DNA from: Heterodontus francisci
Lineage: Eukaryota
Length of the DNA stretch: 64,000 nucleotides
NCBI RefSeq assembly: GCF_036365525.1
Contig: NC_090382.1
Location: 111,014,372 to 111,078,371, forward strand
Direction of reading: 5' to 3'
Below are positions 2,075 to 51,604 of the stretch, in pieces. The notes under the pieces were generated by a model, which ran no database searches, was not told the origin of the DNA, and saw nothing but the letters and a program-made list of their open reading frames with translations. Numbering within the stretch: the first letter of the stretch is position 1; each line of letters starts with the position of its first letter. The position numbers and the translations under genes were made by a program.

Positions 2075-4462
2075 ATGGCAAATACACGCAGGGGCGGAAC
2101 GTCTTTTATTTTTCTGCTTTGTGTGTTGGACCTGGTTTCGGGACAAATTCGCTACTCGATTCCCGAGGAACTGGAGCATGGGGCCATTGTTGGGAATATC
2201 GCCGAGGATTTAAAACTAAAGATTTGGGAATTATCAGCTCGCAAGTTTCGGCTGATCTCCGATGACAGGAAGCAAAACGTGGAGGTAGATTTGGAAAAAG
2301 GTAATTTATTTGTGAATGAAAGAATCGACCGAGAACAGATTTGTAAACAGAGCTCTACCTGTTCCCTTTCTTTTGAAATAACGCTCGACAATCCGTTGGA
2401 AATGCATCGCGTTGTAGTGGAAATACTGGATGTAAATGATAATTCACCTAGTTTTGCAAAAGATGAATTTTCACTGGAGATCAGTGAATTAATTGCACCA
2501 GGGGCGCGCTTTCCTGTCGAGAGCGCGCAAGACCCTGACGTGGGAACAAACACAGTCAGCACTTATCAGGTCAGTCCAAATGAGCACTTCGGCATTAAAA
2601 TGCAGACAAGAAACGATGGGAGTAAAAGTGCGGAGTTGTTCTTAGAGAAGTCCTTAGATCATGAACAACAGCCTACCTTTCAGCTGGTACTGACGGCCCT
2701 CGACGCTGGGATTCCTCAGAGATCTGGCACAACTCGAATTATCATTACTGTGCTGGACAGCAACGATAACGCACCTGTATTCGATCATGAAATATACAGG
2801 ACCAGTATAGCAGAAAACGCGCCTTTAGGTACATTAGTGCTAAAAATCAATGCTTATGATTTAGATGAAGGGTCCAACGCTGAACTGTCGTATTATTTCA
2901 CAAGACACGTTTCCCAAAGGATTCGCGAAATGTTCAAATTGGATCCAGTAACGGGAGAGATTTCTGTTCAAAGTGTATTGGATTTCGAAGAATCAAGTGT
3001 TTATGAACTTGATGTGCAAGCAGTGGATAATGCTCCCCCGGGTATGGCTGTGCATGCCAAAGTTATGGTCGGATTAATTGATGTGAATGATAACGCACCC
3101 GAGGTAGAGGTGACGTCCGTGTCCAGTACAATCCCTGAAGATGCCCAGCCTGGAACTGTGATTGCTGTAATCCGAGTCACGGATTTAGATTCGGGACAAA
3201 ACGCTCAAATTCATTGTCAAGTTCCCGTGAATATTCCATTTAAACTTCAAAAGTCTTCGAGGAATAAATATAAATTGATTACAAGTGATATTCTCGATCG
3301 TGAAACAGCCCCACTGTACAACATCTCCATTTCAGCCTGGGACGGAGGATCCCCCGCTCTGTCGACGCGTAAAACCATCTTGGTTTCTATTTCTGATGTA
3401 AATGACAACGCACCGAAGTTCACACAGTCGTTATATAATGTGTATCTGATGGAGAATAACACTCCAGGTGCGTCAATATTTGATGTTACTGCTTTAGATT
3501 CTGATATGGATAAAAATGGCTACGTGGTGTATTCTATTTTGGAGAATCGGATACAAGAGGGCCCTAGATTCGTCACAATTAACTCCGAAAATGGCAATAT
3601 TTACTCACTTCGCTCCTTTGACTATGAACAGCTGAAGTATTTCCAAATCAAAGTTCAAGCCCAGGATACTGGATCTCCCTCACTGAGCAGCACTGCCACC
3701 GTGAATGTTATTATCTTGGACCAAAATGACAATGCGCCGGTTATTGTTTCACCTTCAATGTGGAACAGTTCAGCGTCAATTGAGATTATGCCGCAGTCAG
3801 TATATCCAGAATACTTGGCCACTAAGGTAATCGCTACTGATGCCGATTCTGGACAGAATGCTAGGCTTTCCTACCAACTGTTGGAGGCCTCTGATCCCAG
3901 TCTCTTTACTGTTGGGCTTCTTTCTGGAGAAATCAGAGCAACTCGACATTTTAGGGAGCAAGATATCGTCACAGAGAGACTGGTCCTCTCCATAAAGGAT
4001 AATGGGCAGCCGAGTCTATCCACTACGGTCACCATCTCTTTTACAATTTTGTCCAATGCTACACAGAATTATTCTGGACGAACCTATGAACCCAAACATT
4101 CGGAATATCTTTCGAATTTAAATCGCTATTTAATCATAATTTTAGCATCAACTTCGTGTCTGTTTCTTGCAATCATCATTTTTCTGGTGTTCCTGAAGTT
4201 CAAACAAGAGAGAAATATTGCTGAAGACGGCAGCTCTACAGTTTGCTGTGACAGACGGAGGAATTCTAATAATGTCTTTAATCGGAGACCTGCTGGAAAC
4301 GAGCCTTTAAGTTATCCTGGATCTGGTCAGGTGGAAGGTTTTGGTTATACTGTGTGTTTAACTCCAGAATCATCCAAGAGTGATTTTCTATTTCTAAAGC
4401 CCGGTCATCCTACATTGCCTTTTAGTGAAGTGAATATCCGGAACACCAACGCGATGATTTAA
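2075..4462 (+). CDS. Clustered protocadherin variable exon 1 (795 aa; signal peptide, EC1-EC6, TM, cytoplasmic tail)
   Basis: Uninterrupted ORF. Signal peptide ends VSG/QIRYSIPEE. EC1 has DREQIC-x5-C; repeated DxNDNAP, AxDxD and LDRE/LDFE cadherin motifs; TM YLIIILASTSCLFLAIIIFLVFL; tail motif YTVCLTPESSKSDFLFLKP; own CSE promoter. Subcluster not assignable by eye. Confidence 0.96.
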   Translation: MANTRRGGTSFIFLLCVLDLVSGQIRYSIPEELEHGAIVGNIAEDLKLKIWELSARKFRLISDDRKQNVEVDLEKGNLFVNERIDREQICKQSSTCSLSFEITLDNPLEMHRVVVEILDVNDNSPSFAKDEFSLEISELIAPGARFPVESAQDPDVGTNTVSTYQVSPNEHFGIKMQTRNDGSKSAELFLEKSLDHEQQPTFQLVLTALDAGIPQRSGTTRIIITVLDSNDNAPVFDHEIYRTSIAENAPLGTLVLKINAYDLDEGSNAELSYYFTRHVSQRIREMFKLDPVTGEISVQSVLDFEESSVYELDVQAVDNAPPGMAVHAKVMVGLIDVNDNAPEVEVTSVSSTIPEDAQPGTVIAVIRVTDLDSGQNAQIHCQVPVNIPFKLQKSSRNKYKLITSDILDRETAPLYNISISAWDGGSPALSTRKTILVSISDVNDNAPKFTQSLYNVYLMENNTPGASIFDVTALDSDMDKNGYVVYSILENRIQEGPRFVTINSENGNIYSLRSFDYEQLKYFQIKVQAQDTGSPSLSSTATVNVIILDQNDNAPVIVSPSMWNSSASIEIMPQSVYPEYLATKVIATDADSGQNARLSYQLLEASDPSLFTVGLLSGEIRATRHFREQDIVTERLVLSIKDNGQPSLSTTVTISFTILSNATQNYSGRTYEPKHSEYLSNLNRYLIIILASTSCLFLAIIIFLVFLKFKQERNIAEDGSSTVCCDRRRNSNNVFNRRPAGNEPLSYPGSGQVEGFGYTVCLTPESSKSDFLFLKPGHPTLPFSEVNIRNTNAMI

Positions 4463-5849
4463 TTTAGACAGCAACTTTTATGCTGACAGGTTTGAAGAAG
4501 AATTAATTTTCTTGTGTTCTATCATAGAATAAGTTTTGCATATTTGACTAAATCCTCACATTGCTAGTAGGATGCCTGATAGACGAACCTGACTACTGCT
4601 GTTCTTGCCGTCCTATATGTCCGTGGTACTAAGTATTTTTGACTTTTCTTGACAGCCCTAAGCAGTGCACACTGTATTAAGGCTAATGTAAAATCCAGAT
4701 TGTGCTTGCTTCAATTTCTGTTTTGATAAAGTACGCATTAACGCATCCCTCTGTGATTCCTCTCTCTCCTGCTGTGCTTATGCCTTATCGTATGTGTAGT
4801 AAACTGATTAGTACCAGAAGACATAATTTCAGGGCCTGGGGCGTTTTCACAGATCAATGCAACGTTTCATAGAACGAAAAGCTTTCCATTAGAAGCCACG
4901 CTGAATTAAAATCGTTGCTTTCACCATTGCGTTTAATGAGTATTCTGATATTGTTCAATAACTATACCCTTTTAAAATGATAAATGCCATGCACAAATAA
5001 TATGCAGCAATTCGATCAATTTTGCCCAAGTCAAATGATTTCTCACATTTGCTTCCAATTTTACGCAATACTCCGAGTTGTTGGTGAAGTAATCTATTTT
5101 ATTAAAAAATGGACTTGTAAAATGCTCACAATAAATATCTGCTACTCTGTAGGTAGTGCTGTGATAGATGTGTCATGGGCTCGAACTGCAGTCCTATGTG
5201 AGTATGCTACTACGCGACTGCACAATGCAGCCTCCGTATTCTTACAAATAATTCAATATGCTTTATGAATAATTTTATTGTGCCATTTTCTCAACATTAA
5301 CTAAAATTTCGAATGTTCAAAACACGGAGTTAAATAAAATCAAAATATTACGTAGTTAACAATTACTTGAGAAAATTTTATTAACTGATTTTTAAATATT
5401 CTCAGTAAAGTTTTTACGTGAAGGCAATGCCTCACGGCCTGGGCTTGAATTTGACTTTTGAGCACAGAACTCTGACACTGTGAGGGGAACCTGGATTGTA
5501 TACTCTGACCATGTTCACTGTAATCAACTTCAGATGATACGTCAGGGTCGTTTAATAATTTGTACTGATGCAACATTCGGACAGATTCTGCTGAACGGTT
5601 TTTAATTTATTGAAGACAAAGTACAAAATAAATTTCAAAATCTTTCTCACGTAAAGTTTATTTTGGATAATATCACAGCTACTGCAGTTTTTTTTATTTT
5701 TGACCCAGGTCTGCTATTAAACCCTCGAAGCACCATCAAAAATCCCAGAATGCTTTTTCTTAAAATAGAATTTAGTCAGTTTAAAATACTAACCCTCATG
5801 TTATCTTCTACCTGGAACAACCAACCACTATTATTATAAAACAGTGAAT

Positions 5850-13054: not shown

Positions 13055-15445
13055 ATGGTGAATACGCTTAGCAGCGGGGCGTCTTTCATTTTCCTGCTTT
13101 GTGTGTCGGACCTGGTTTTGGGACAAATTCACTACTCGATGATTGAGGAATTGGAGCATGGGGCATTTGTTGGGAATGTCGCTGAGGATTTAGCACTAAA
13201 CGTTTGGGAATTATCGGCTCGCAAGTTTCGGCTGGTCTCTGATGAAAGGAAGCAATACATGGAGGTAAATCTGGAGAACGGGATTTTATTTGTTAATGAT
13301 AGAATCGATAGAGAACAGATATGCAGACAAAGCTCGACATGTTCCCTTACTTTTCAAATAGCGCTCGATAATCCTTTGGAAATACATCCAATTGCAGTGG
13401 AGATACTAGATGTAAATGATAATTCACCCAGATTCCCGAAGTCTGAATTTTCCCTGCAGATTAGTGAATTAATTGCGCCAGGAGCGCGCTTCCCTCTCGA
13501 GAGCGCGCACGATCAGGACGTCGGCACAAACGCTGTCAGTACTTACAACATTAGTCCAAACGAACACTTCGGTCTCAAAGTGCAGACAAGAAGTGACGGG
13601 AGTAACAGTGCAGAGCTTGTATTAGAAAAATATTTGGACCGTGAGCAACAGTCGACCTTTCAGTTGATACTGACGGCTATTGATGGCGCGATTCCTCAGA
13701 GATCTGGTACAACGCGGATTATGATTACTGTCGTGGACGTCAATGATAACGCGCCTGTATTCAGCCATGAAGTATACAGGGCGAGTGTAGACGAAAACGT
13801 CGCCAAAGGTACCTTGGTCACAAAAGTTAATGCTGTTGATTTAGATGAAGGTATAAATGCTGAGCTGACATATGCTTTCACAAGCCACGTGTCCCAAAGG
13901 ATTCGCGAGCTGTTCACATTGGACCCGACAACTGGAGAGATCAGAGTTCAAGGTGTACTGGATTTTGAAGAATCAAGTGTTTATGAACTTGATGTAGAAG
14001 CTGTGGACAATGGTTTCGCCGGTATGGCAGGACATGCCAAAGTTATAGTCGAACTAATAGACAGGAATGATAACGCCCCCGAACTTGACGTGACCTTGGT
14101 GTCCAGCGCCGTGCGGGAAGATGCTCCCCCGGAGACTGTGATAGCTCTGATCAGTGTATCAGATTTAGATTCTGGCGAATATGGGCACGTTCAGTGTCAG
14201 GTTCCAGTGCAACTTCCTTTCAAACTTTTAAAAACTTTGAGGAACAACTACAAATTGGTTACAAAAGATATTTTGAATCGCGAAACTGTCCCGCTATACA
14301 CCATCTCTATTTCAGCCTGGGACGGAGGGTCTCCTCCTCTTTCAACAAATAAAACTATCTTAGTTTCAGTAAGTGATATAAATGACAACGCGCCAAGGTT
14401 TACACAATCTTCATATAATGTGTATCTGATGGAGAACAATACTCCTGGTGCTTCTATATTTACTGTTACCGCGTTAGATCCTGATTTAGATTACAATGGG
14501 GAAGTGTCATATTCTGTTTTAGCGAATCAGATGGAGGAAATGTCTGCGCCTGCTTACGTCAGCATTAACTCAAGAAATGGCAACATTTACGCACTGCGTT
14601 CCTTTGATTACGAGCAACTGAAACATTTCCAGATCAAAGTTCATGCTCAGGATAACGGATCTCCTCCACTGAGCAGCACAGCCACAGTGAATGTTATTAT
14701 ATTGGACCAAAATGATAATGTTCCGGTTATTGTTTCACCCTTAACGTGGAACGGTTCAGCATCAGTGGAGATTGCTCCCCAATCAGTCTATCCAGGATAC
14801 CTTGTCACTAAGGTCATCGCCACTGATGAGGATTCTGGTCAGAATGCACGGCTTTCTTATTATCTGTTGGAGTCAACTGATCCCAGTCTGTTTACTATGG
14901 GGCTTCTAACTGGAGAAATCAGAGCAACTCGCAGTTTTGGTGACCAAGACATCATCACAGAAAGACTGGTCTTCGGTGTCAAGGATAACGGACAACCGAG
15001 CCTCTCCAGTACGGCCACAATTTCCTTTGTCGTTCTGTCCAATGTTACTAAATCTTCTGAACGAAATCACCGACCTAGGACCTCGGCATATTTTTCGGAT
15101 TTAAATCGTTATTTAATCATCCTTTTAGGATCAACATCCGTCTTGTTTCTTATAATCATAATTTTTCTGGTCTCCCTCAAGTGTAAACAAGACAGAAATA
15201 TTGCTGAAGACTACAGCTCTACAATTTGTTGTTACAGTCGGAGGAATTCGAATAATACCTTTACTCGGAGCCCTGCAGCAAACGAACAATTAAATTATAC
15301 CGGACCTGGTCAGAACAGAAGTTGTCATTATGCTGTGTGTTTATCTCCAGAATCATCCAAAAGTGATTTTCTGTTTCTGAAGCCTTGTCATCCTACCTTG
15401 CCTTTCAGCGACTCAGGCATTCGGGACACTAATGCAAGAATATAA
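13055..15445 (+). CDS. Clustered protocadherin variable exon 2 (796 aa)
   Basis: Same architecture and motifs as exon 1; intact ORF; CSE core 270 bp upstream. Confidence 0.96.
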   Translation: MVNTLSSGASFIFLLCVSDLVLGQIHYSMIEELEHGAFVGNVAEDLALNVWELSARKFRLVSDERKQYMEVNLENGILFVNDRIDREQICRQSSTCSLTFQIALDNPLEIHPIAVEILDVNDNSPRFPKSEFSLQISELIAPGARFPLESAHDQDVGTNAVSTYNISPNEHFGLKVQTRSDGSNSAELVLEKYLDREQQSTFQLILTAIDGAIPQRSGTTRIMITVVDVNDNAPVFSHEVYRASVDENVAKGTLVTKVNAVDLDEGINAELTYAFTSHVSQRIRELFTLDPTTGEIRVQGVLDFEESSVYELDVEAVDNGFAGMAGHAKVIVELIDRNDNAPELDVTLVSSAVREDAPPETVIALISVSDLDSGEYGHVQCQVPVQLPFKLLKTLRNNYKLVTKDILNRETVPLYTISISAWDGGSPPLSTNKTILVSVSDINDNAPRFTQSSYNVYLMENNTPGASIFTVTALDPDLDYNGEVSYSVLANQMEEMSAPAYVSINSRNGNIYALRSFDYEQLKHFQIKVHAQDNGSPPLSSTATVNVIILDQNDNVPVIVSPLTWNGSASVEIAPQSVYPGYLVTKVIATDEDSGQNARLSYYLLESTDPSLFTMGLLTGEIRATRSFGDQDIITERLVFGVKDNGQPSLSSTATISFVVLSNVTKSSERNHRPRTSAYFSDLNRYLIILLGSTSVLFLIIIIFLVSLKCKQDRNIAEDYSSTICCYSRRNSNNTFTRSPAANEQLNYTGPGQNRSCHYAVCLSPESSKSDFLFLKPCHPTLPFSDSGIRDTNARI

Positions 15446-15484
15446 TATTAGAGCAATTTCTATGCTGGAAATGGCATATATAAC

Positions 15485-16885
15485 TACAGAATCTTCTAGC
15501 ACAGAAGGATCATTTGGCCCGTCGTGCTTGAGTGGCCTTTTTTAAAGTGCTGTCGAATTAGTCTTACATTCCAGATTTTCCTAGTAACGCTGCAAATTAG
15601 TTAACTTCTAGTACATGTCCAATCGCCTTTTGAAATTTCCTATGGAAACTGCTTGCACCACTCTTTCAGATCGTGCATTCCAGATCTTACCAGTCTTCTG
15701 TGTGAACACATTTCTTCCCTTTTCCTCTTTAGTTATTTTGCCAAAATCTATGACCTCCGATTACCAACTCAGTTGTGAGAAGAAACCGTTTCTCCATATT
15801 TGTCTTATCAAAATTCCCTATAATTTTGATGATCTCTATCAGGTGTCTCCTTAAATTTCTTTGCTCTAAGGAGAACAAACCCAGCTTCTCCAATGTCTCC
15901 ACACTCCCTTCATCCCTGATATCACCTTTGTAAATCACCTTTGTACCCTGTTCAAGTAGTAACCATCTTTCCCAAAGTGTCGTGCTCAGAACTGTACACA
16001 ATGCTCCATTTGAGGCCGAACTAGTGATGGCTAAAAGTTTACCATGGCTTCCTATTTCTTGTATTTTATTTACGAAGCAAAGTATACCACACGCTTTCTC
16101 ATCCGCCTTACAACCAGCCCTGCGATTTGTGAATATGTATACCCAGTTCCCTCTTCTCTTGTACCGCCTCAAAATAGTACCATATATATTACACTGGCTC
16201 TCCCTGTTTCTTCCAAAGTGCATCGCTTCACACATTTGTCCGTTTCGCTAGTCTGCTTTGCTCTCTTGAGGTCCGTTATTTCCCTCCTCACCATTTACTA
16301 CGTTGCTATGTTTTGTAATCCACAACATTAGAAATTATAATTGATACACCCCAGTCCCGTTATTTCTCTATAAAACAGTAAAAGCCAGGGTCCTAATATC
16401 AATCCCAGGGGGACCTCATTACATATTTGTGCCCGAACCAAAAAAAACGCCTTTCACTACTATTCACTGCTTCCTATTCCTTAGCCAATTCTATACCCAA
16501 ATTACCACCGATTCTTCAATCCCATATTCTCCTGCTTTCCGAATAAATCTGCTCTATATTAATTTATCAGATTTCTTTTGAATGTTCATCTACATATTTG
16601 CCTGATATATTTCATCAGCACTCTGTTACTTCATCAAAGAACTCAACCAATTTATTCAGGCACGAGTTGCCTTTAACAAATCGGTCGCTGGCAGTTCCTA
16701 TTAACCCATACTTCCCCAAATGGGAATTGTTATTGTCCTTGATATTGGTCCTTAGTCGTTTTCTCAACACTAAGAGTAGACTGACTCTCCTGTAGTTACC
16801 ATGCTTATCCCTCTCTTCTATTTTGAATGGGCGTGTAACATTTGCAACCGTCCAGATCTCTAGGACCTCTCCCATATGTAACAGC
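15485..16885 (-). mobile_element. CR1 LINE 3' fragment inserted about 40 bp after the exon 2 stop
   Basis: Minus-strand RT remnants (NYRRVSL..FVKGNSCLNKLVEFFDEVT; LEKLGLFSLEQRNLR); the conserved 3' flank resumes at about 16900. Confidence 0.85.
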
Positions 16886-18559
16886 TATTTATTAATTCAA
16901 AGAATTGAGACTATTTTTCATATAGATAAGTCCTCACATTGGCAGTTAAACGCCCGACATGTCAAATTGTTTATTACTGTTCCTATGATCCCACGTGTCA
17001 GTGATGATATACCTGTCGTCCTGTGACAGCCCTGCGTAGTACACACTGTATTAACGTAAGAATGAAACCTGGTTTTTGCTTGTTTCATTTTTCTTTTAAA
17101 GAAGTACATATCAATATGTTCCTCTGTCATTTTTCTCTCCGCTTCTGTGATGGTGTTTTAACGAATGCATAAGGCACAAAACCAGGGTCTGAGGCGCATT
17201 CACTTGTGATTGCAAAAGGGACCTTTCATAGAACTATAGCTTTTCTTTCAGATGCAACGCTGATTTTTTAAATAGTTTTATCAGTGCATGCAGTGAGAAC
17301 ATTGACGTTTTTCAATCAATACCTCGATGTGAAAATGTTGCAGATGTTCCAAGAATAAAATCTATGGCAATTCAACGGAATATGTTAATAATTTTTGACC
17401 TTTGCTCCAGGATCCTTATGAAGTAGTTGTATTGTGATAGTATTCCCCATAGGGAAAACATAACGCTTTACTGCTACAGGCTGTGCCACATACTATAGCT
17501 GCTATTTTATAGTGAATGCGATAGCGCCATGCTTCCTACAAATTGCCCAAATGTGTTCGAAATATTTTTGATCTGCTAATAACTTTAAGTTATAATGGTC
17601 GAAATAACGGTTTAGAATGAAAACACAAAAATACATATATTACAACTATACGATTGGAGTTGGCAATTGAATTATCTTTTTATAACCTAATTAATTTTTT
17701 TTTAATTGAAGGCCATAGGTCACCGGAATCGCTGGGTATATAATTCTAGTTGCTTGTACGTAGATGTCACTCTGAGTGCTGAGTTTGGACTGTGATATCT
17801 GGAGAAGCGTAGGGTCACTAACCTCCGATGATTCATCAGTACCCTCGCAGTTTCTTTCCAAAATGCTTTCCAATATATAGGTTGTATATTTAAAAAAATG
17901 GCAGAAGTTATGTGAGTGTCAGAGGAAAATGGACACAGAGATACATATCCAGGAAACAATCACAAACACTCAAAAACAGGATGCACAGAGGTCCCTTAGA
18001 ATATTATAAAGCACTGCTACTTGTCTTGGAAATTAGCTCAACACCCCTGCATACCAGGACCTTCCCTCCTTCATTGCCGGCAAACACCAGAAAACCATCA
18101 CTGAACATACCGCAGGTTGAACCCATAATTGTATACACATAGCCCACACACTCCTTCTGCCACACACAATTAAATATTCAGTTAGAGAACGGTGCGCCTG
18201 GATAGAGTTACATAAACTCCAGAAGTTTTGGATCCGCAACCTATGCCCACAAACTCAATAATGCACTGTGAGGGAAGTTCGCTTGGTTCTGATTTTCCTG
18301 GGTAATAAAACAAGATCTTCACGATCAAATTATCACAATTGATCAAACAAACATTACTGAAAGCATCTGTTCTACAGACTCACATTAGACTCTAATCCCT
18401 ACTCTTACTGTAGCTTTGCAGATCGTTAGGCAAGAAAGCCAAAATAATAGTGAAACTGCACCATTATTTGCAAACATCTTTTAGAAACTGCTTGAAAAGT
18501 ATAAGTTCATTACAAAAACGTGGAAATAAATTTAAATTTTATGCGTTAGAGTCTCTTAG

Positions 18560-26720: not shown

Positions 26721-29114
26721 ATGGTGAATTCACAGAGGAGCGGCGCGTCTTTTATTTTCCTGCATTATGTTTTGCACCTGGTTTTGGGACAAATTCGCTA
26801 CTCGATTCCCGAGGAGCTGGAGCATGGGGCCTTTGTTGGGAATATCGCTGAGGATTTAAGACTAAACGTTTGGGAATTATCGGCTCGTAATTTTCGGCTG
26901 GTCGTCGATGACATAAGGCAATATATGGAGGTAAATGTGGAAAATGGGAATTTATTTGTTAATGAAAGAATCGACAGAGAACAGCTCTGTAGACAAAGCT
27001 CTGTCTGTTCCCTTTCTTTTCAAATAGCGCTGGATGATCCTATGGAAATGCATCGTATCGCAGTGGAGATACTAGATGTAAATGATAATTCGCCCAGCTT
27101 TGAGAAAAGCGAATTCTCTTTGGAGATCAGTGAATTAATTGCGCCAGGGGCGCGCTTCCCTCTCGAGAGCGCACATGATGCAGACGTGGGCACAAACATA
27201 ATCAGCATTTACCAGATTAGTCCAAACGAGCACTTCGGGATTAAATTGCAAGAAATGAGAGATGGGAGTAAAAGTGCCGAGCTGTTATTAGAGAAGCCAT
27301 TAGACCATGAACAACGGTCAACATTTCACCTTATACTGACTGCCATTGACGGCGGGATTCCTCACAGATCTGGCACAATTCGGATTATCATTAACGTCGT
27401 GGACGCAAATGATAACGCGCCGATTTTCGATCAAGAAATCTACAGGGCCGAAGTAGTAGAAAACGTCGCCAAAGGTACGTTAGTGGTAAAAGTTAACGCT
27501 GCTGATTTGGACGAAGGCACCAACGCTGACCTAACATATTCTTTCACCAATCACGTTTCAAAAAGGATTCGCGAATTGTTCAAATTGGACCCGGAAACTG
27601 GAGTGATCAGTGTTCAAGGTAGAGTGGATTTTGAAGAATCACGTGTTTGTGACCTTGATGTACAAGCTGTGGACAATGCTCCACCTGGGTTGTCAGGGCG
27701 TTGCAAAGTTGTTGTCGACATAATTGACGTTAATGATAATGTCCCTGAGTTGGGCGTAACCTTGGTGTCCGGCAACGTGCGGGAAGACGCTCCTGCGGGG
27801 ACTGTGATAGCGCTGATCAGCGTAACGGATCGAGATTCGGGTGAATATGGACAAGTTCAGTGTCAGGTTCCAGGGAATATTCCATTTACGCTTGAAAAAC
27901 CTTTCAGAAATAACTATAAGTTGGTTACACGTGATATTCTCGATCGTGAAACGGCCTCAGTGCACAACATCTCTATTTCAGCCTGGGACGGAGGGTCTCC
28001 TCCTCTTTCAACAAGTGAAACGATTACAGTTTCGGTAACTGACATAAATGACAACGCACCAAGGTTTACCCAATCATCATATAATGTGTATCTGATGGAG
28101 AACAACACTCCAGGAGCTTCTATATATGCCGTTACCGCTTTGGAAGTTGATTTGGATCAGAATGGAGAAGTCTCCTATTCTATTCCGGAGAATCAGATGC
28201 AAGAACTGTCTGCAAATGATTACGTCACGATTAATTCCAAAACTGGGAACATTTACGCGCTGCGCTCCTTTGACTATGAGCAGCTGAAAAATTTGCAGAT
28301 CAAAGTTCAAGCGCAGGATGCTGGATCTCCCCCACTGAGCAGCACTGCTACCGTGAGTGTCATTATATTGGACCAAAATGACAATGCTCCGGTTATTGTT
28401 TCACCTTTAACCTGGAACAGTTCAGCCACAGTGGAGATTGTGCCTCAGTCAGTATACCCAGGTTACTTAGTCACCAAGGTAATCGCGACTGATGCCGATT
28501 CCGGTCAAAACGCACGGCTTTCCTACCAACTGTTGGAGGCCTCTGATCACAGTTTGTTTACTGTGGGGTTTCTCTCTGGAGAAATAAGAGCAACCCGACG
28601 ATTTAGAGAGCAAGATATCACCACAGAACGCTTAATCCTCTGTGTGAAGGACAATGGACAGCCGATCCTCTCCAGTTCGGCCACAATCTTTTTTTCAATC
28701 TTGTCTAACATTACAGAAAAATCTTCCGAACGAACTGACGAACCGACACAGTCGGGTTATTTTTCGCATCTGAATCGCTATTTGATCATCATTTTAGGAT
28801 CAACTTCCTTTCTGTTTCTTGTAACCATAATTTTTCTGGTCGTCATAAAGTTTAAACAAGACAGAAATATTGCTGAAGGCTACAGCTCTACAGTTTGTTG
28901 TTGCAAACGTGGAAGTTCGAATGATGCCTTTAATCGGAGACCCGCAGCAAACCAGTCACTAAATTATAGAGGATCTGGCCAAATTGAAAGTTATCAGTAT
29001 AACCTGTGTTTATCACCAGAATCATCGAAAAGTGATTTTTTGTTTCTAAAGCCCTGTAATCCGACTTTGCCATTCGATGACTTGGGTGCTCGGGAGACCA
29101 TCGCAAGAAGATAA
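26721..29114 (+). CDS. Clustered protocadherin variable exon 3 (797 aa)
   Basis: Same architecture; intact ORF; CSE core 272 bp upstream. Confidence 0.95.
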   Translation: MVNSQRSGASFIFLHYVLHLVLGQIRYSIPEELEHGAFVGNIAEDLRLNVWELSARNFRLVVDDIRQYMEVNVENGNLFVNERIDREQLCRQSSVCSLSFQIALDDPMEMHRIAVEILDVNDNSPSFEKSEFSLEISELIAPGARFPLESAHDADVGTNIISIYQISPNEHFGIKLQEMRDGSKSAELLLEKPLDHEQRSTFHLILTAIDGGIPHRSGTIRIIINVVDANDNAPIFDQEIYRAEVVENVAKGTLVVKVNAADLDEGTNADLTYSFTNHVSKRIRELFKLDPETGVISVQGRVDFEESRVCDLDVQAVDNAPPGLSGRCKVVVDIIDVNDNVPELGVTLVSGNVREDAPAGTVIALISVTDRDSGEYGQVQCQVPGNIPFTLEKPFRNNYKLVTRDILDRETASVHNISISAWDGGSPPLSTSETITVSVTDINDNAPRFTQSSYNVYLMENNTPGASIYAVTALEVDLDQNGEVSYSIPENQMQELSANDYVTINSKTGNIYALRSFDYEQLKNLQIKVQAQDAGSPPLSSTATVSVIILDQNDNAPVIVSPLTWNSSATVEIVPQSVYPGYLVTKVIATDADSGQNARLSYQLLEASDHSLFTVGFLSGEIRATRRFREQDITTERLILCVKDNGQPILSSSATIFFSILSNITEKSSERTDEPTQSGYFSHLNRYLIIILGSTSFLFLVTIIFLVVIKFKQDRNIAEGYSSTVCCCKRGSSNDAFNRRPAANQSLNYRGSGQIESYQYNLCLSPESSKSDFLFLKPCNPTLPFDDLGARETIARR

Positions 29115-29719
29115 TTTAGAAGCAATTTCAACGCTGGGAATGTCAGATTTGATGAAAAGCTACCATCATGCGTTGAGGCAGTGCGTAAGATTTTTGTATA
29201 TGGCAAACTCCTCACACTAGTAACAGAATGCCGAATAGGCTCTTGTCCCTATGACCCTGCTTGTCTTTGGTGCTGAATATACACGCCGCTTTTAGTACGT
29301 ACTCTATTAAGGTTAGTATGAAACCTGACTTTATTTGTTTCACATTCTGTTTTGATGAAATACATATCATTGTGTTCCCGTCATTCTCTCTGCTACTGGA
29401 TTGGTGTTGAAAAGCATGCACATTAAACTGGCTGGTATCAGACGTACAATTGCAGCACCTGAGTGCATTCAACAGTAACGTTTCACAAAACTGAAGCCTT
29501 TATTTCTGATGCCAGGTTCAATTAAAATAATCGATTGTATCAATGCATGCAATGAGAACATTGACGCTTTTTTCAATAAATACGTCGGTCTGAAAATGCT
29601 GCATATTTTTCCAAAAACAAATTGTGCAGCAATTAAACTGAATATTGTAAATGCAAAGTCTGTCTCTGCTGTGCTCCAAACTTGATATAAAACTCTGATT
29701 GGTTGGCTAAGTAATCTAG

Positions 29720-35641: not shown

Positions 35642-36613
35642 ATGGCGAATGCACTGATGAACCGGGCGTCTTTCATTTTACTGCTTTGTTTGTCGGATCT
35701 GGTTTCGGGACAACTTCGTTACTCGATTCCCGAGGAGCAAGATCACGGGGCCTTTGTTGGTAATGCCGCTGAGGATTTAAAATTAAACCGTTGGGAATTA
35801 TCGGCTCGCACATTTTGGCTGGTTTCCGAGGTAAATATGGAAAATGGGAATTTATTTGTTAATGAAAGAATCGACAGAGTACAGCTTTGTAGTCAAAGCT
35901 CGACGTGTTCCTTTTATTTTCAAATAGCGCTCGTTGATCCGATGGAAATGCATCGTACCGCAGTGGAGATACTAGATGTAAATGACAATTCGCTCAGCTT
36001 TGCAAAGAGACAATTCGCCTTTGCAGATCAGCTTCCCTCTCGAGAGCGCGCATGATGCGGATGTAGGTACAAACACAATCAGCACTTGCCGGATCAGTCC
36101 AAATGAGTATTTTGGCATTAAAGTGCAGTCAGGAGAGGAGTAAAAGTACCGAGCTATTGTTAGAAAAGCCTTTGGACCGTGAACAGTAGTCAACATTTAT
36201 CTTGTTTTGACCGCTATTGATGGTCGAGTTCCCAACAGATCTGGCACAGCTCGCAATATCATTACTGTAGTGGATGGGAATGATAACGCACCTCCGCGGC
36301 TGTAGCAGCAAATGTCTCTCAAGAAAATCAACTCTGCTGACTTGGACCAAGGTACCGATGTTGATCTAACATATTCTTTCACAAATCACGTTTCCCAAAG
36401 AATTCGCGAGTTGCTCAAATTGGATCCGAAAATTGGAGAGATCAAAGTTCATGGAGTAATTTTGAGGAATGAAGTATTTATGAACTTGTTGTCGAAGCAG
36501 TAGACAATGGTGTACCTGGTTTGACAGGACATACGAAGGTTATGGTCATTTTAACTGATGTGAATGCTAATACCCCTGAGATAGAGATGACGTCAGTATC
36601 CAGGATGGTTCCA
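35642..36613 (+). pseudogene. Truncated protocadherin variable-exon pseudogene (signal peptide to start of EC4)
   Basis: Starts MANALMNRASFILLLCLSDLVSGQLRYSIPEE. Has a 21-bp deletion in EC1 (DERKQYM missing), a frameshift plus deletion near 36020-36030, a TAG near 36187 and further deletions. Homology stops after ...EIEMTSVSRMVP, where LINE sequence begins. Confidence 0.93.
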
Positions 36614-41738: not shown

Positions 41739-44138
41739 ATGGCGAATGCACTCAGCTGCGGGACGTCTTTCATTTTCCTCCTGTGTGTGTCGGTTCTGGT
41801 TTCTGGACAAATTCGCTACTCGATTCCCGAGGAACTGGAGCATGGGGCCTTTGTGGGGAATATCGCTGAAGATTTGGCACTCAATGTCTGGGAATTATCG
41901 GCTCGCAAATTTCGGCTGGTCTTTGATGACAGGAAACAATACATGGAGTTAAATCAGGACAATGGGATTTTATTTGTTAATGAAATAATCGACAGAGAAC
42001 AGATCTGTAGACAAAGCTCCCCGTGTTCCCTTTCTTTTCAAATAGCCCTTGATAATCCGTTGGAAATGCATCATGTCGCAGTGGAGATACTGGATGTAAA
42101 TGATAATTCACCTAGTTTTTCAAAGGATGAATTCGTCCTGCAGATCGGTGAGTTAATTGCACCAGGGGCGCGCTTTCCTGTCGAGAGCGCGCTCGATCCG
42201 GACGTCGGTACAAATACAATCAGCGCTTACCAAATCAGTCCAAACGAGCACTTCGGCATAAAAGTGCAGACAAGAACCGATGGGAGTAAAAGTGCTGAGT
42301 TGTTATTAGAGAAGTCCCTGGACCGTGAACAACAGTCTATCTTTCATATTGTACTGACGGCCATTGATGGTGGGGTTCCGCATAGATCTGGCACAGCACA
42401 GATTATCATTAATGTGGTGGACGTCAATGACAACGCACCTGTATTCGATCATGAAATCTATACGGCGACTGTGGCAGAAAATGCCCCGCATGGTACCTTA
42501 GTTACAAAAATCAACGCTGTTGATTTAGATGAAGGTGCCAACGCTGAGTTAACATATTCTTTCACAAACCACGTGTCCCAAAGATTTCGCGAGCTGTTCA
42601 AATTGGATCCGATAACTGGAGAAATCAGAGTTCAAGCTGTACTGGATTATGAAGAATCAAACGCTTATGAACTCGATGTACGAGCTGTGGACAACGCTCC
42701 ACCTCTTATGGCAGGACATGCTAAAGTTATGGTCGGACTAATTGATGTGAATGATAACTTCCCGGAGATAGAGGTGAGCTCGGTATCCAGCACAGTCCCA
42801 GAAGATGCTGCGCCAGGGTCGCTAATAGCTGCAATCAGTGTCACGGATTTAGATTCTGGAGGAAATGGTCACGTACAGTGTCAGGTTCAGGGAGATGTTC
42901 CATTTAGACTTCAAAGGTTTTTGAGAAATAACTATAAACTGGTAACGCGCGATATTCTGGATCGGGAAACGGCCCCTCTCTACAACATATCAATTTCAGC
43001 CTGGGATGGAGGGTCTCCTCCTCTTTATACAAGTAAAAACATCTTGGTTTCGGTTTCTGATATAAATGACAACGCACCACAGTTTATAGAATCCTCATAT
43101 AATGTGTATCTGATGGAGAACAATACGCCTGGCGCTTCCATTTTTGCTGTTACCGCTTCGGATTCAGATTTATACCAGAACGGGGAAGTTACATATTCCA
43201 TTCTGGACGATCAGATACGTCACAATTACGTCACAATTAACGCCAAAAATGGGAACATTTACGCGATTCGTTCATTTGACTATGAAAACCAGAAGTATTT
43301 CCAGATCAAATTTCAAGCTCATGATGCTGGATCGCCCCCATTGAGCAGCACTACCATCGTGAACGTTATTATCCTGGACCAAAACGACAATGCTCCGGTT
43401 ATTGTTTCGCCTTTAACGTGGAACAGTTCAGCATCAGTTGAGATTGTGCCCCAGTCAGTATATCCAGGTTACTTGGTTACCAAGGTAATCGCGACTGATT
43501 CCGACTCTGGTCAGAACGCACGGCTTTCCTACCAACTGTTGGAAGCCTCTGATCCCAGTCTGTTTACTGTGGGGTATCTTTCTGGAGAAATCAGAGCAAC
43601 TAGACGTTTTAGAGACCAAGATATCATCACAGAACGATTAATCGTCTGTGTGAAGGACAATGGACAGCCCAGCCTCTCCAGTACCGTCACTCTCTCATTT
43701 TCAATTGTCTCCAATTTTACTGATAGATATTCTGAACGACGTAACGGACCCAGCCAGTCGGAATATTATTCGAATTTAAATCATTACTTGATCATCATTT
43801 TTGGATCTACTTCATTTCTGTTTTTTGTAACCATCATTTTTCTCGGCATTCTGAAGTTTAAACAAGGCAGAAATGTTGCTGAAGAATACAGATCTCCTGT
43901 GTATTCTTACAGACGGAGCAATTCGAATAATATTTTGAATCGGAGACCTGCAACAAAGCAACGTTTAAATTATAGCGGGCCTGCGCAAACCGAAGATTTT
44001 GGTTATACTGTCTGTTTATCACCAGAATCATGGAAAAGTGATTTTCTGTTTCTAAAGTCCTGTCATCCTACTTTGCCTTTCAGTGAAGTGAATGCCCGGG
44101 ACACTAACCCGATGAATTACTTCAGACAGCAACTTTGA
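41739..44138 (+). CDS. Clustered protocadherin variable exon 4 (799 aa from ATG 41739)
   Basis: The ORF track starts at a TTG (41694); the in-frame ATG homologous to the paralogues (MANALSCG...) is at 41739. Six cadherin repeats, TM and tail. Confidence 0.95.
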   Translation: MANALSCGTSFIFLLCVSVLVSGQIRYSIPEELEHGAFVGNIAEDLALNVWELSARKFRLVFDDRKQYMELNQDNGILFVNEIIDREQICRQSSPCSLSFQIALDNPLEMHHVAVEILDVNDNSPSFSKDEFVLQIGELIAPGARFPVESALDPDVGTNTISAYQISPNEHFGIKVQTRTDGSKSAELLLEKSLDREQQSIFHIVLTAIDGGVPHRSGTAQIIINVVDVNDNAPVFDHEIYTATVAENAPHGTLVTKINAVDLDEGANAELTYSFTNHVSQRFRELFKLDPITGEIRVQAVLDYEESNAYELDVRAVDNAPPLMAGHAKVMVGLIDVNDNFPEIEVSSVSSTVPEDAAPGSLIAAISVTDLDSGGNGHVQCQVQGDVPFRLQRFLRNNYKLVTRDILDRETAPLYNISISAWDGGSPPLYTSKNILVSVSDINDNAPQFIESSYNVYLMENNTPGASIFAVTASDSDLYQNGEVTYSILDDQIRHNYVTINAKNGNIYAIRSFDYENQKYFQIKFQAHDAGSPPLSSTTIVNVIILDQNDNAPVIVSPLTWNSSASVEIVPQSVYPGYLVTKVIATDSDSGQNARLSYQLLEASDPSLFTVGYLSGEIRATRRFRDQDIITERLIVCVKDNGQPSLSSTVTLSFSIVSNFTDRYSERRNGPSQSEYYSNLNHYLIIIFGSTSFLFFVTIIFLGILKFKQGRNVAEEYRSPVYSYRRSNSNNILNRRPATKQRLNYSGPAQTEDFGYTVCLSPESWKSDFLFLKSCHPTLPFSEVNARDTNPMNYFRQQL

Positions 44139-44494
44139 TGCTGACAGGTAATTCCTTTGATGAAGAGTTATATATTATGTGTTCAATTAGCGGATCAGTT
44201 TTGTATATTTGTCTAAATGCTCGCATTACTAGTAGAAAGAACGATAGGCTAATTGCTTACTGCTTTTCCTATGTTGCTACTGAATATACCTGAATATATG
44301 CCGCTTTTTTACAGCTCTAAATGGTACAGACTTTATTAACCTTGGCTTTTACTTTGTTTCAGTTTTTGCTTTGATAAAGTACATATCGACGTGGCCCTCT
44401 GTCAGCTATCTCCCCGCTGCTCTATTGGTGTTTTATCGCATGCACTGGTTAGTATCACAAGACATAATTATTCCCATTGGCGGAACGGTCGAGA

Positions 44495-44782
44495 ACAGAT
44501 GATTGGCAAAAGAACCAGAGGGGACATGAGGAAAACTATTTTACGCAGAGAGTGGTTAGGATCTGGAATGCAATGCCTGAGAATGTGGTGGAGGGACATT
44601 CAATCGGGCTTTCAGAAAGTAATTGGGTAATTATCTAAAGGGAAAAGATTTGCTGGTCGACTGGGGAAATGCGTGGGAGTGAGACTAGCTGAATTTCTCT
44701 CGCAGAAAGCCGGCAAGGACACGATGGGATGAATGATTTCCTTCTGTGGAGTAATCGTTCTTTGATTCAATGATTCTATGAC
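44495..44782 (+). mobile_element. CR1 3' fragment inside the 3' flank of exon 4
   Basis: MIGKRTRGDMRKT..; tail gattcaatgattctatga. Confidence 0.78.
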
Positions 44783-45899
44783 TTCAGGGCCAGGGTACTT
44801 CAGCCAAAAAACTGTAAGGCTTCATCGCACTAGGACCGATGTATTAGAAACCGGACTGAATTAAAAGCTTTGGATTTACTCTTGATTGTAGTGACAATGT
44901 TGACGTTTTTGAGTAATTTACCCGCTCTAGAAATATTACATAATATTCACAAATAATGTGTAGCAACTGAATTGAATTTGTGGAAGTCAGATTTGCTTCT
45001 GTCTTTACACAGTGCATTGGGTTTTTGGTGAAGTAATCTATTCTGGATTAAATTGGGTAATCGCGCGACTCACAAACAGCTCACTTTAATACCTGCAGTA
45101 TCGGTTACTTTGTAGGTGATGACGCGATAGATACTTTCAACACTGAAGGTGCCACGTTTCCTGTCAGTTTGTGACACACACATCAATTCGGCCACCAGCT
45201 CTAATATTTAATCCATATGCTTTGTAAACTTTATTCCTGTGATTTATTTTTCTCAGTAACTAATATTTATATGTTCAAAGTAAGGAGTCAAACAAAATAA
45301 ATAAGATGAAAATACTACGCAGTTCAAAACAACATGATTAATTTTTTCAAGTGAATTGTTTTTCTGGCCTAATTCAGCTTTCCTCTTGAAGACCACACCT
45401 CGTGCGTGGAATTCTACACATAGCTGTGACTCTCTGAGCTGAATTTAGATTATCCATTCTTTGCATGTTCAGTGTGATTCACCTCCAAGAATGCACCAGT
45501 ACCGTTCAGTAATTTGCACTGATGAAATTATCCCAGCAATTTCTGCCCAACAGTTTTCATTTTTGGGGGAAACGTTAGGGAATACATTTCAATTTTATCA
45601 GGTAAAAGGTAATTGGACTATTTAAGAAAGACTGTATATGTGTTAACACCTATGAGAAAACAAGCCTGATACTGATTACAAGCTGATTGCAGACTTTGTA
45701 TTATGGTCTCTAAAATTCAGAAAGTAGATAATGTTCGGAGAGAATGATTTTCCTTATTGTAAGTAAGCTAGTCTAAAAATGATGGAATTAGTCTCTTATT
45801 AGATAAAGGAACTGACTATTGTGAACTTTGAGCCAGAAAGTAAAACAGTGAAGTCAACTTAGCCTTGTTGCCTCTATACCTGACTCTTTCAACGAACTC

Positions 45900-48595: not shown

Positions 48596-50986
48596 ATGGC
48601 GACAATCAGCAGCCGGGCGTCTTTCATTTTCCTGCTTTGGCTGTCGGACCTGGTTTCGGGACAAATTCGCTACTCTATTCCCGAGGAGCAGGATCATGGG
48701 GCCTTTGTAGGGAACGTCGCTGAGGATTTGAGACTAAATATTTGGGAATTATTGGCTCGCAAATTTCGGCTGGTCTCTGATGAAAGGAAGAAATACATGG
48801 AGGTAAATCTGGAAAATGGTATTTTATTTGTTAATGAAAGAATTGACAGAGAACGGATTTGTAGACAGAGCTCTACCTGTTCCCTTTCTTTGCAAATAGT
48901 ACTCGATAATCCTTTGGAAATACATCCCATTAGAGTGGAAATATTAGACGTCAATGATAATTCACCCAGATTTCCGAACAGTGAATTCGGCCTGCAGATC
49001 AGTGAGTCAATTGCGGCAGGGGCGCGCTTTCCTGTCGAGAGCGCGCATGACCTGGACGTGGGCACAAATACAATCAGCACTTACCAGATCAGTCCAAATG
49101 AACACTTTGGCCTCAGAGTTCAGACACGAAATGATGGGAGTAAAAGTGCCGAGTTGTTATTAGAGAAACCCGTGGATCGTGAAGAACAGTCAACCTTTAA
49201 CCTTGTACTGACGGCCATTGACGGTGGCGTACCGCTGAGATCTGGTACAAGTCAGATCTTGATCACTGTAGTGGACGTCAATGATAACGCACCTGTATTC
49301 GATCATGAAATATATAAAACCAGCGTAGCAGAAAACTCCCCCAAAGGGACCTTGGTGATAACAGTCCACGCTTCTGATATAGATGAAGGTTTGAATGCTG
49401 AGCTGACGTATTCTTTTACCAGTCACGTTTCCCAAAGTATTCGCGAATTGTTCAACTTAGATCCAGAAACTGGAGAGATTAAAGTTGAAGGAGGACTGGA
49501 TTTTGAAGAATCAAGTGTTTATGAACTTGATGTCGAAGCTGTGGACAACGCACCAGCAGGTATGGCGGGGCATACCAAAGTTATGGTTGGATTAATAGAT
49601 ACGAATGATAATGTCCCCGAACTGGACGTGACTTTGGTGTCCAGCGTGGTGCGGGAAGATGCTCCTCCAGGGACGGTAATAGCTCTGATCAGTGTTATGG
49701 ATCCAGATTCTGGCGAGTTTGGACACGTACAATGTCACATTTCAGTGCAACTTCCATTTAAACTTCAAAAAACCTTGACAGACAGTTACAAGTTAGTTAC
49801 AAATGATATTTTGGATCGTGAAACCGTCCAGATTTACAACATCTCCATTTCAGCCTGGGACGGCGGGTCTCCTCCTCTTTCTACAAATAAAACCCTCTTA
49901 GTTTCGGTTTCTGATATGAATGACAACGCGCCCCGGTTCACACAATCCTCATATAATGTATATCTGATGGAGAACAACACTCCAGGTGCTTCTATATTTT
50001 CTGTTACCGCTTTGGATTCAGATTTGGACCAGAATGGAGAGATTTTCTATTCTATTCTGGAGACTCAGAATGAAGAGGAACGTGGGTCTGCTTACGTTTC
50101 GATTAACTCAAAAAATGGGAACATTTACGCAGTACGCTCATTTGACTATGAACAATTGAAACATTTCCAGATCAACGTTCAAGCGGAGGATGCTGGTTCC
50201 CCACTACTGAGCAGTGCTGTTACTGTCAGTGTTATTATCTTGGATCAAAATGACAATGCTCCGATTATTGTTTCACCTTTAACGTGGAACAGTTCAGTAT
50301 CAGTGGAGATTGTGCCGCAGTCAATATATCCAGGATACTTAGTTACCAAATTAATTGCGACTGATGCCGATTCCGGTCAGAACTCACGGCTTTCCTATCA
50401 TTTGTTGGAGGCCAATGATCCCAGTCTGTTTACTGTGGGGCTTCTGTCTGGAGAAATCAGAGCAACACAACGTTTAGGGAAGCGAAACATCAGTACAGCA
50501 AGACTGGTCGTCTTCGTGAAGGATAATGGACAGCCAAGTCTCTCTAGTTCGGTCACAATCTCATTTTCAATCTTGTCCAATGTGACTGAAAAGTCTTCTG
50601 AACGAACTGATGAACCTCGACAGTCAGAGTATTTTTCGCATCTGAATCGTTATTTAATCGTCGTATTAGGATCAACTTCTTTTTTGTTTCTTGTAACCAT
50701 CATTTTTCTGGTCAAGCTAAAGTTTAAACAAGACAGGAATATTGCTGAGGACTACAGCTCGACAGTTTGTTGTTCCAGACGGCGGCATTTGGATGATACC
50801 TTCAATCGGAGGTCCCCACCAAACGAACCATTTAAATATAGTGAGTCTGCTCAGACTGAAGGTTATCGTTACACCGTCTGCTTATCACCAGAATCGTCGA
50901 AAAGTGATTTTCTGTTTCTAAAGCCCTGTAATCCTACCTTGCCTTTCAATGACTTGGGTGCCCGGAACACCAACGCAAACAAATGA
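48596..50986 (+). CDS. Clustered protocadherin variable exon 5 (796 aa from ATG 48596)
   Basis: The ORF track starts at a TTG (48551); the homologous ATG in the agaacaATGG context is at 48596. Six cadherin repeats, TM and tail. Confidence 0.95.
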   Translation: MATISSRASFIFLLWLSDLVSGQIRYSIPEEQDHGAFVGNVAEDLRLNIWELLARKFRLVSDERKKYMEVNLENGILFVNERIDRERICRQSSTCSLSLQIVLDNPLEIHPIRVEILDVNDNSPRFPNSEFGLQISESIAAGARFPVESAHDLDVGTNTISTYQISPNEHFGLRVQTRNDGSKSAELLLEKPVDREEQSTFNLVLTAIDGGVPLRSGTSQILITVVDVNDNAPVFDHEIYKTSVAENSPKGTLVITVHASDIDEGLNAELTYSFTSHVSQSIRELFNLDPETGEIKVEGGLDFEESSVYELDVEAVDNAPAGMAGHTKVMVGLIDTNDNVPELDVTLVSSVVREDAPPGTVIALISVMDPDSGEFGHVQCHISVQLPFKLQKTLTDSYKLVTNDILDRETVQIYNISISAWDGGSPPLSTNKTLLVSVSDMNDNAPRFTQSSYNVYLMENNTPGASIFSVTALDSDLDQNGEIFYSILETQNEEERGSAYVSINSKNGNIYAVRSFDYEQLKHFQINVQAEDAGSPLLSSAVTVSVIILDQNDNAPIIVSPLTWNSSVSVEIVPQSIYPGYLVTKLIATDADSGQNSRLSYHLLEANDPSLFTVGLLSGEIRATQRLGKRNISTARLVVFVKDNGQPSLSSSVTISFSILSNVTEKSSERTDEPRQSEYFSHLNRYLIVVLGSTSFLFLVTIIFLVKLKFKQDRNIAEDYSSTVCCSRRRHLDDTFNRRSPPNEPFKYSESAQTEGYRYTVCLSPESSKSDFLFLKPCNPTLPFNDLGARNTNANK

Positions 50987-51604
50987 GTTAGAAGTAATTT
51001 CAATGCTGGGGGTAGCAGATAATTCATTTTGGTGAAGAGCTATGTGCTATGCTTTGAATTAGTGGGTAAGTTTTTTTGTGTACGCCTATATCCTCATGTT
51101 GATAGTAATAGACCTGATAAGGCAAATTGTTTACTGCTGTTCGAACGTTCTTATGTTTCAATGTTCAATGATGCTGAATATACCTGCCGCTTGCCAGACA
51201 GCCCTGAGCAATGCACAGTTAACGTTAGTATGAAACCTGATGTGTGATTGTTACAATTTTTATATTGTCGAAGCACATAGCAATGTGTTCTCTGTCAATC
51301 CTCTCTCCGCTGCTCTACTGATGTTGTATTGCATGTATATTGAACTGGTTAATGTGATCAGAATAATTATAGGGCTTGGAATGTATTGGACCGTGACTAT
51401 AATGTTTTCGTAAAACTTAAACGCTTTCTTCCCGATACCACGCGGAATTAAATTCTTTGGCGTTATCAGTGCGAGCACTGAAAATATTGACGGATTTCAT
51501 TAAATACGTCCGCCTGAAAATGTTACATATTTCCCCAAGAAAATTATATAGCAATTAAACAGAATATGTAAAGACAAATACGTTTTTAGCTGTGTTCCAG
51601 ACTT

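Follow-up and report, generated by a model that had tools for sequence, protein, structure and literature searches.

Protocadherin genes of the window

The window analysed here is a stretch of 64,000 nucleotides from the genome (6.0 Gb) of the shark Heterodontus francisci (contig NC_090382.1; written below as G000:C12:111014372-111078371). It holds five intact protocadherin (Pcdh) open reading frames (ORFs), all on the + strand and 795-799 aa long: unit 1 (2075-4462, 795 aa), unit 2 (13055-15445, 796 aa), unit 3 (26721-29114, 797 aa), unit 4 (41739-44138, 799 aa) and unit 5 (48596-50986, 796 aa). Unit 1, of the epsilon type, encodes six cadherin repeats, a transmembrane (TM) segment and a short tail closed by its own stop. 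We hold with high confidence that the five are cartilaginous-fish Pcdh-epsilon genes, each of them ending in one large exon and likely giving an unspliced mRNA without a constant domain.

A preliminary description of the window had stated that all five ORFs run past a conserved tail motif to their own stops at nearly equal positions, and this holds: counted from the K of KSD (KSDFLFLK) the stop is codon 29, 29, 29, 35, and 29 in units 1-5, unit 4 having TAC in place of the stop codon common to the other units and closing its frame six codons downstream. In unit 1 the motif reads YTVCLTPESSKSDFLFLK (4346-4399, + strand) and contains, at 4380, the GT of a weak phase-1 site. A Pfam scan of two of the five proteins returned Cadherin_2, five Cadherin stretches and Cadherin_C_2, and no constant tail was present in those two. 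A single large exon with six cadherin repeats, a TM segment and a short cytoplasmic part is what defines a clustered protocadherin, together with a tandem same-strand array in which a CGCT-type promoter element accompanies each exon; such a box (1791-1814 in unit 1, + strand, with the CGCT core at 1800-1803) precedes all five window genes, in unit 4 as the variant TGTT GCT.

Splice donors and constant exons

Whether the ORFs end at their stops or are spliced before them was judged by applying a human donor matrix to every GT that lies past the TM segment and ahead of the stop, with a threshold of 4 bits in phase 0. The 15 intact self-terminating exons of the locus were set against its 40 other variable exons, one TM-less ORF fragment being dropped. 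None of the 15 had a donor of at least 4 bits before its stop (best 3.5, median -2.2 bits), whereas 39 of the 40 others did, the 40th falling just below 4; the strong phase-0 donor ahead of the first stop that marks spliced variable exons of the alpha, gamma, delta, mu, and nu type is thus missing from the self-terminating group. Donors of the other variable exons read GAG|GTGAG or similar and lie 102-139 residues past the membrane segment. Among the spliced groups the weakest donor (GAA|GTGAGT, just below 4 bits) belongs to a mu-group gene split by a frameshift (G000:C12:111446962-111449746). The best phase-0 scores in units 1-5 were 1.3, -1.4, -4.4, 0.4, and -4.4 bits, in line with the earlier remark that no convincing donor ahead of the stop is common to the five. 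The GT in the KSD codons, named there as the site at which splicing would overturn the reading (AA|GTGATT), is present in all five units, yet it is weak (AAA|GTGATT 0.4 bits; AGA|GTGATT, the form of unit 1, -1.5 bits) and in phase 1, unlike the phase-0 acceptor of nu constant exon 1.

Contigs from a related species also cross this GT unspliced. They come from three runs (X1, X2, and X3) of one sample, whose RNA nature is a guess, and they cover unit 1 only. Contig 8 of X1 (914 nt on 4084-5005, 21 differences, no joint) bridges the KSD GT, the stop, a donor-like site behind it and the hexamer ATTAAA, ending 95 nt past the latter; contig 23 of X3 bridges the KSD GT as well, and X2 gave one contig, on 5106-5291. 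If contig 8 is RNA, it supports read-through of the exon. On the unspliced, polyadenylated mRNA known for Pcdh-beta, the evidence thus comprises one unspliced contig of guessed RNA status and without a 3' end.

The surrounding locus was followed through 1.34 Mb of DNA, which leaves out some stretches among the mu and nu genes and the roughly 260 kb that separate epsilon1 from delta exon 3. A genome search with the first cadherin repeat gave 69 matches, mostly in one 1.9 Mb array on the contig of the window, and the Pfam constant-tail model matched three exons 3 genome-wide, at 110.33, 111.69, and 112.26 Mb. In order, this DNA holds one delta-like exon with its constant exon 3, a lone exon at 110.60 Mb, then the 15 intact self-terminating exons, which together with pseudogenes occupy 110.95-111.32 Mb and of which five fall in the window, and downstream of these two exon groups, each followed by constant exons. 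We take these two groups to be mu and nu, by their order and the usual nomenclature rather than by named sequences. The first exon past mu constant exon 3 (G000:C12:111711057-111713690) is delta-like in both the tree described below and its tail motif, and its donor stands 139 residues from the membrane segment, much farther than in the nu genes behind it.

A constant exon 3 profile was built with alpha, gamma, and delta sequences; with any one of the three real exons left out, it still finds that exon at E 1e-12 or better, and in the 782 kb of contiguous DNA around the array it found nothing better than E 0.24. That match, at G000:C12:110733605, had been considered as a possible fourth exon 3 and was rejected as a lysine-rich chance match. 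No alpha- or gamma-type exon 3 was found in the DNA examined, while motif and tblastn scans located nu constant exon 1. The self-terminating genes therefore show neither a constant domain nor a constant-exon set of their own. The preliminary description had proposed that they are a cartilaginous-fish subcluster independent of constant exons, and this is supported by the donor counts (0/15 vs. 39/40), by the lack of a nearby exon 3 and by the unspliced contig of the related species.

Assignment to Pcdh-epsilon

A protein search yielded elephant-shark "protocadherin epsilon8" together with numerous proteins of about 797 aa from sharks and rays, and cluster look-ups added elephant-shark epsilon2, 3, 5-7, and 9-13. 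None of the 11 named proteins retrieved from the epsilon2-13 series has a constant domain, each of them ending 28-41 residues from the motif, and those tested by BLAST against this genome had their best match in the self-terminating group. Among 71 motif-bearing database proteins of 780-880 aa, 70 end 19-32 residues from the motif, 42 of them at exactly 28.

The tree was a quick search on extracellular repeats EC1-4 of 62 rows (a 63rd candidate was dropped because it covered too little, and the candidates did not include 22 of the 30 nu genes), with Shimodaira-Hasegawa-like approximate likelihood ratio test (SH-aLRT) values as its sole support and no beta sequence among the rows. In it the 15 genes, the seven elephant-shark epsilon proteins used (7/7) and three other elasmobranch proteins form one clade (SH-aLRT 100), whose neighbours are delta, mu, and nu (SH-aLRT 92), the gammaA/B group standing apart. 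The first four array genes (G000:C12:110948754-110972287) make up a clade of their own, with an earlier stop at codon 20 from the motif. Two proteins of bamboo shark and smooth-hound in or near the epsilon clade (P0205 and P0224) have a longer tail, and no intact close match to either was present in the DNA examined (best 56%).

Passages of papers citing Yu et al. (2008) list delta, epsilon, mu, and nu subclusters in elephant shark (PMC2764143, PMC4978886, PMC7811963), and the constant-exon tree, in the portion of PMC2764143 consulted, takes in alpha, gamma, delta, mu, and nu only. The elephant-shark epsilon subcluster (ABV59319-ABV59331; Yu et al., 2008) shares with the window genes its clade, its place between delta and mu and an end 28-41 residues past a KSD-type motif without a constant domain. 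In the present shark that place, between the delta gene and the mu subcluster, was found with the mu label given as above. Gene number is similar too, with 15 plus epsilon1 here and a numbering up to 13 there; the five window genes differ in grouping with skate and sawfish proteins, an expansion that they share with rays and skates, apart from elephant-shark epsilon6-13, which form their own clade, so that the relation is not one-to-one. The 2008 report by Yu and colleagues is said to state outright that epsilon is without constant exons. By tree, position and tail, the window genes are the elasmobranch counterpart of the subcluster named in 2008 and not a new one. Variable exons of mu, nu, and delta in the same locus have the same ectodomain layout and a homologous tail motif, but they carry a strong phase-0 donor about 41-47 codons past that motif and constant exons, where epsilon stops 20-35 codons past it. 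Databases label the epsilon genes protocadherin-10-like, alpha-C2-like or gamma-like, which is a practical point for anyone retrieving them.

Epsilon1 and the donor-like site behind the stop

Elephant-shark epsilon1 belongs to the cluster matched by the lone exon at 110.60 Mb, and this exon, the epsilon1 orthologue (G000:C12:110602558-110605514), bears a strong donor, GAG|GTGAGT. A good acceptor lies 353 nt downstream of the donor (G000:C12:110605126 to 110605479), followed by the codons for VSGLHGALFIP and a stop, a peptide with a single match in the DNA examined; this tail or its VAS variant ends 9 of the 31 related database proteins listed, from sharks and rays, the others ending differently. 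Epsilon1 probably uses this private 11-codon last exon in place of constant exons. In the tree it joins delta weakly (SH-aLRT 84) and not the other epsilon genes.

A feature overlooked in the preliminary description is a donor-like site behind the stop. In unit 1 it reads CAG|GTTTGA (4487-4495, + strand, GT at 4490; 0.1 bits), in frame and 38 codons past the K of KSD, a putative relic; in unit 4 it reads CAG|GTAATT (44145-44153, + strand, GT at 44148; 4.9 bits, phase 0) and lies 10 nt behind the stop. The aligned sequence is CAG|GTAATG (4.0 bits) in the next gene outside the window, CAG|ATAATT in unit 5, CAG|ATTTGA in unit 3 and, at an insertion, CAT|AT in unit 2. The GT is thus kept in three of the six closest paralogues; in epsilon genes less closely related the site is not clearly recognizable. 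It falls 38-40 codons past the motif, in frame in units 1 and 4, and the working donors of the delta, epsilon1, and nu genes counted fall at 41-47 codons. It is plausible that the site is a relic donor. In the fourth array gene of the locus (within G000:C12:110948754-110972287) a GT stands directly behind the stop (TAG|GTAATG).

The sites kept in unit 4 and the next gene make some splicing in the 3' untranslated region (UTR) possible, and the best surviving alternative builds on them: the protein would be as annotated, but some transcripts would splice behind the stop at CAG|GTAAT, yielding a 3' UTR intron or a decay-prone hybrid mRNA. The scores of 4.9 and 4.0 bits are in its favour, as are the apparent splicing of epsilon1 to a private exon 353 nt away and a passage in a review according to which inter-cluster transcripts arise rarely from beta exons, these having retained a 5' splice site (PMC3601302). 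The GT has nonetheless been lost in half of the closest paralogues, contig 8 of X1 is unspliced across the unit 1 site, and the flanks of the window genes do not resemble the intron or last exon of epsilon1 (scores 20-30, shuffled maxima 26-32), so that we consider this alternative unlikely.

Relation to Pcdh-beta and weighing of the assignment

Tetrapod and coelacanth Pcdh-beta genes resemble epsilon in being tandem large exons with their own promoters and stops and no constant exons, and at the genomic level the window genes likewise have a single coding exon and no constant exons. Pcdh-beta is flanked by alpha and gamma, whereas epsilon is flanked by delta, epsilon1, and mu. It is also reported to be gamma-derived, with a 5' splice site kept near the exon end, and it shows no excess sequence similarity to epsilon. 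No beta was recognized among 389 retrieved proteins scanned with a beta tail motif, nor in a search of 50% representatives, which returned mostly fused or Fat-like proteins. Affinity was read from solved ectodomains in the PDB, as the mean score against beta6/beta8 divided by that against gammaA1/A8: the ratio was 0.91 and 0.88 for two epsilon genes, and 0.98, 0.91, and 0.97 for one gene each of delta, mu, and nu. By these scores epsilon has no special affinity to beta.

A single origin, with epsilon as the shark orthologue of tetrapod Pcdh-beta and the single-exon state arising once, is suggested by the similar gene design, the mid-cluster place and a similar short tail, but it appears quite improbable: the relative scores of epsilon are no higher than those of delta, mu, and nu, and the tree sets epsilon with these three, apart from gammaA/B, while a passage of a review derives beta from gamma variable exons (PMC7811963). 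The preliminary description had called an origin independent of tetrapod beta possible; on the same scores and grouping such independence is likely, an indirect argument given a tree without beta.

The least probable reading, to which we give hardly any credence, is that these are ordinary variable exons whose stops only reflect intron read-through, a weak or non-canonical donor ahead of each stop joining them to the constant exons of mu or nu; mu constant exon 3 does lie on the same strand 366-669 kb downstream, the KSD GT occurs in every unit, and the spliced exons of the locus likewise stay open for a few intron codons before reaching a stop, but true donors of the locus are strong and in phase 0 (39/40), the KSD GT is in phase 1 with at most 0.4 bits and is crossed unspliced by two contigs, and the stop keeps its position from species to species (42 of 71 proteins end at exactly 28 residues).

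Several points weigh against the epsilon assignment with unspliced ends as given at the outset. The tree is a quick search with SH-aLRT values only and no beta sequence, the database proteins are mostly genome predictions and not independent transcript evidence, and the donor matrix is a human one. The contigs represent one sample of a related species at low depth and unit 1 only, they may be DNA or unprocessed RNA, and assembly drops rare splice forms. Neither for delta nor for mu did the motif and tblastn scans give a certain location of constant exons 1 and 2. Donor-like sites persist in unit 4 and the next gene, and epsilon1, with its strong donor and probable second coding exon, means that epsilon is not wholly single-exon.

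Under the assignment to Pcdh-epsilon, each gene would be transcribed from its own CGCT-box promoter into an unspliced mRNA, polyadenylated at a candidate site in its own 3' flank, and this mRNA would encode a protein whose six cadherin repeats and membrane segment are followed by a tail of about 86-92 residues that lacks the common constant domain. The working model is mouse beta, whose genes are reported, in a passage of PMC3431597, as unspliced and polyadenylated by 3' rapid amplification of cDNA ends (RACE). The proteins may add surface recognition codes, with constant-domain signalling provided by products of the spliced subclusters acting as cis-partners, in the way suggested for mammalian beta. 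A spliced ancestor would have gained a stop ahead of its donor before the split of sharks and chimaeras, separately from beta. A fuller version of this history is offered tentatively, its probability being short of even: the stop would have arisen about 10 codons ahead of the ancestral donor, whose remains (CAG|GTAAT, CAG|ATAAT) would be the sites 38-40 codons past the motif, epsilon1 would have kept the donor together with the private 11-codon last exon conserved in sharks and rays, and constant-domain-free isoforms would have arisen twice in jawed vertebrates, in epsilon and in beta.

The analysis extends the subcluster named in 2008 to another shark, with a clean internal control for the lack of splicing. 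A passage of a 2020 review calls the loss of constant exons in beta an open question (PMC7811963); if the convergence and the relic donor are true, epsilon offers a second, independent case for comparison with that loss, and isoforms without a constant domain that arose twice would suggest that recognition units lacking a tail were needed repeatedly. The putative relic donor and the last exon of epsilon1 are small leads. The literature searched, without subscription papers and supplements, held nothing on 3' ends, relic donors or an epsilon1 last exon in sharks.

3' flanks and other features of the window

The preliminary description had put a conserved flank of about 1 kb behind each gene. 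A conserved flank does follow all five, but the part common to them is about 600 nt (pairwise identity 58-69%), and patchy similarity up to about 1.15 kb behind the stop is confined to units 1 and 4. In unit 1 the flank spans 4463-5608 (+ strand), its first 600 nt or so being homologous in the five units and the patchy similarity to unit 4 reaching about +1150. In unit 2 a repeat insertion has displaced it about 1.39 kb downstream (16931-17388, + strand), the ATTAAA being lost and AATAAA occurring at 17354. Unit 4 has a repeat insert at 44470-44760 (23 BLAST matches in the DNA examined), which we take to be CR1.

The hexamer ATTAAA was correctly placed at a homologous position in four units (unit 1, 4905-4910; unit 3, 29521-29526; unit 4, 44860-44865; unit 5, 51447-51452; all + strand), where it falls in one alignment column, kept in four of five units and lost in unit 2 alone; the next gene outside the window has TTTAAG at the aligned place. 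No invariant run among the four units is longer than AATTAAA; 40% of their columns are invariant, and a run of at least seven arises in 40% of 5000 column shuffles of these units. The chance drops to 0.404^6 = 0.004 for a single hexamer specified in advance, but the four units were chosen after the fact. The conservation of ATTAAA is suggestive. As an alternative candidate, unit 1 has a canonical AATAAA at 5333-5338 (+ strand), nearly aligned with one at 45296 in unit 4, both about 870 nt behind the stop. If contig 8 of X1 is RNA, it argues against ATTAAA 4905 as the only 3' end. Of the conserved poly(A) signal proposed earlier, the occurrence in 4/5 units stands; its role as the main signal, with the contig of the relative running 95 nt past it, we regard as possible but rather doubtful.

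Between units 3 and 4 lies a truncated, frameshifted epsilon pseudogene holding the first 354 residues only (35642-36613, + strand), which the preliminary description had overlooked, and more broken epsilon copies occur near 111.125, 111.242, and 111.281 Mb of the contig. Directly behind the stop of unit 2, an insertion with a repeat occupies 15477-16860 (ends approximate) and has a possible target-site duplication of about 10 nt.

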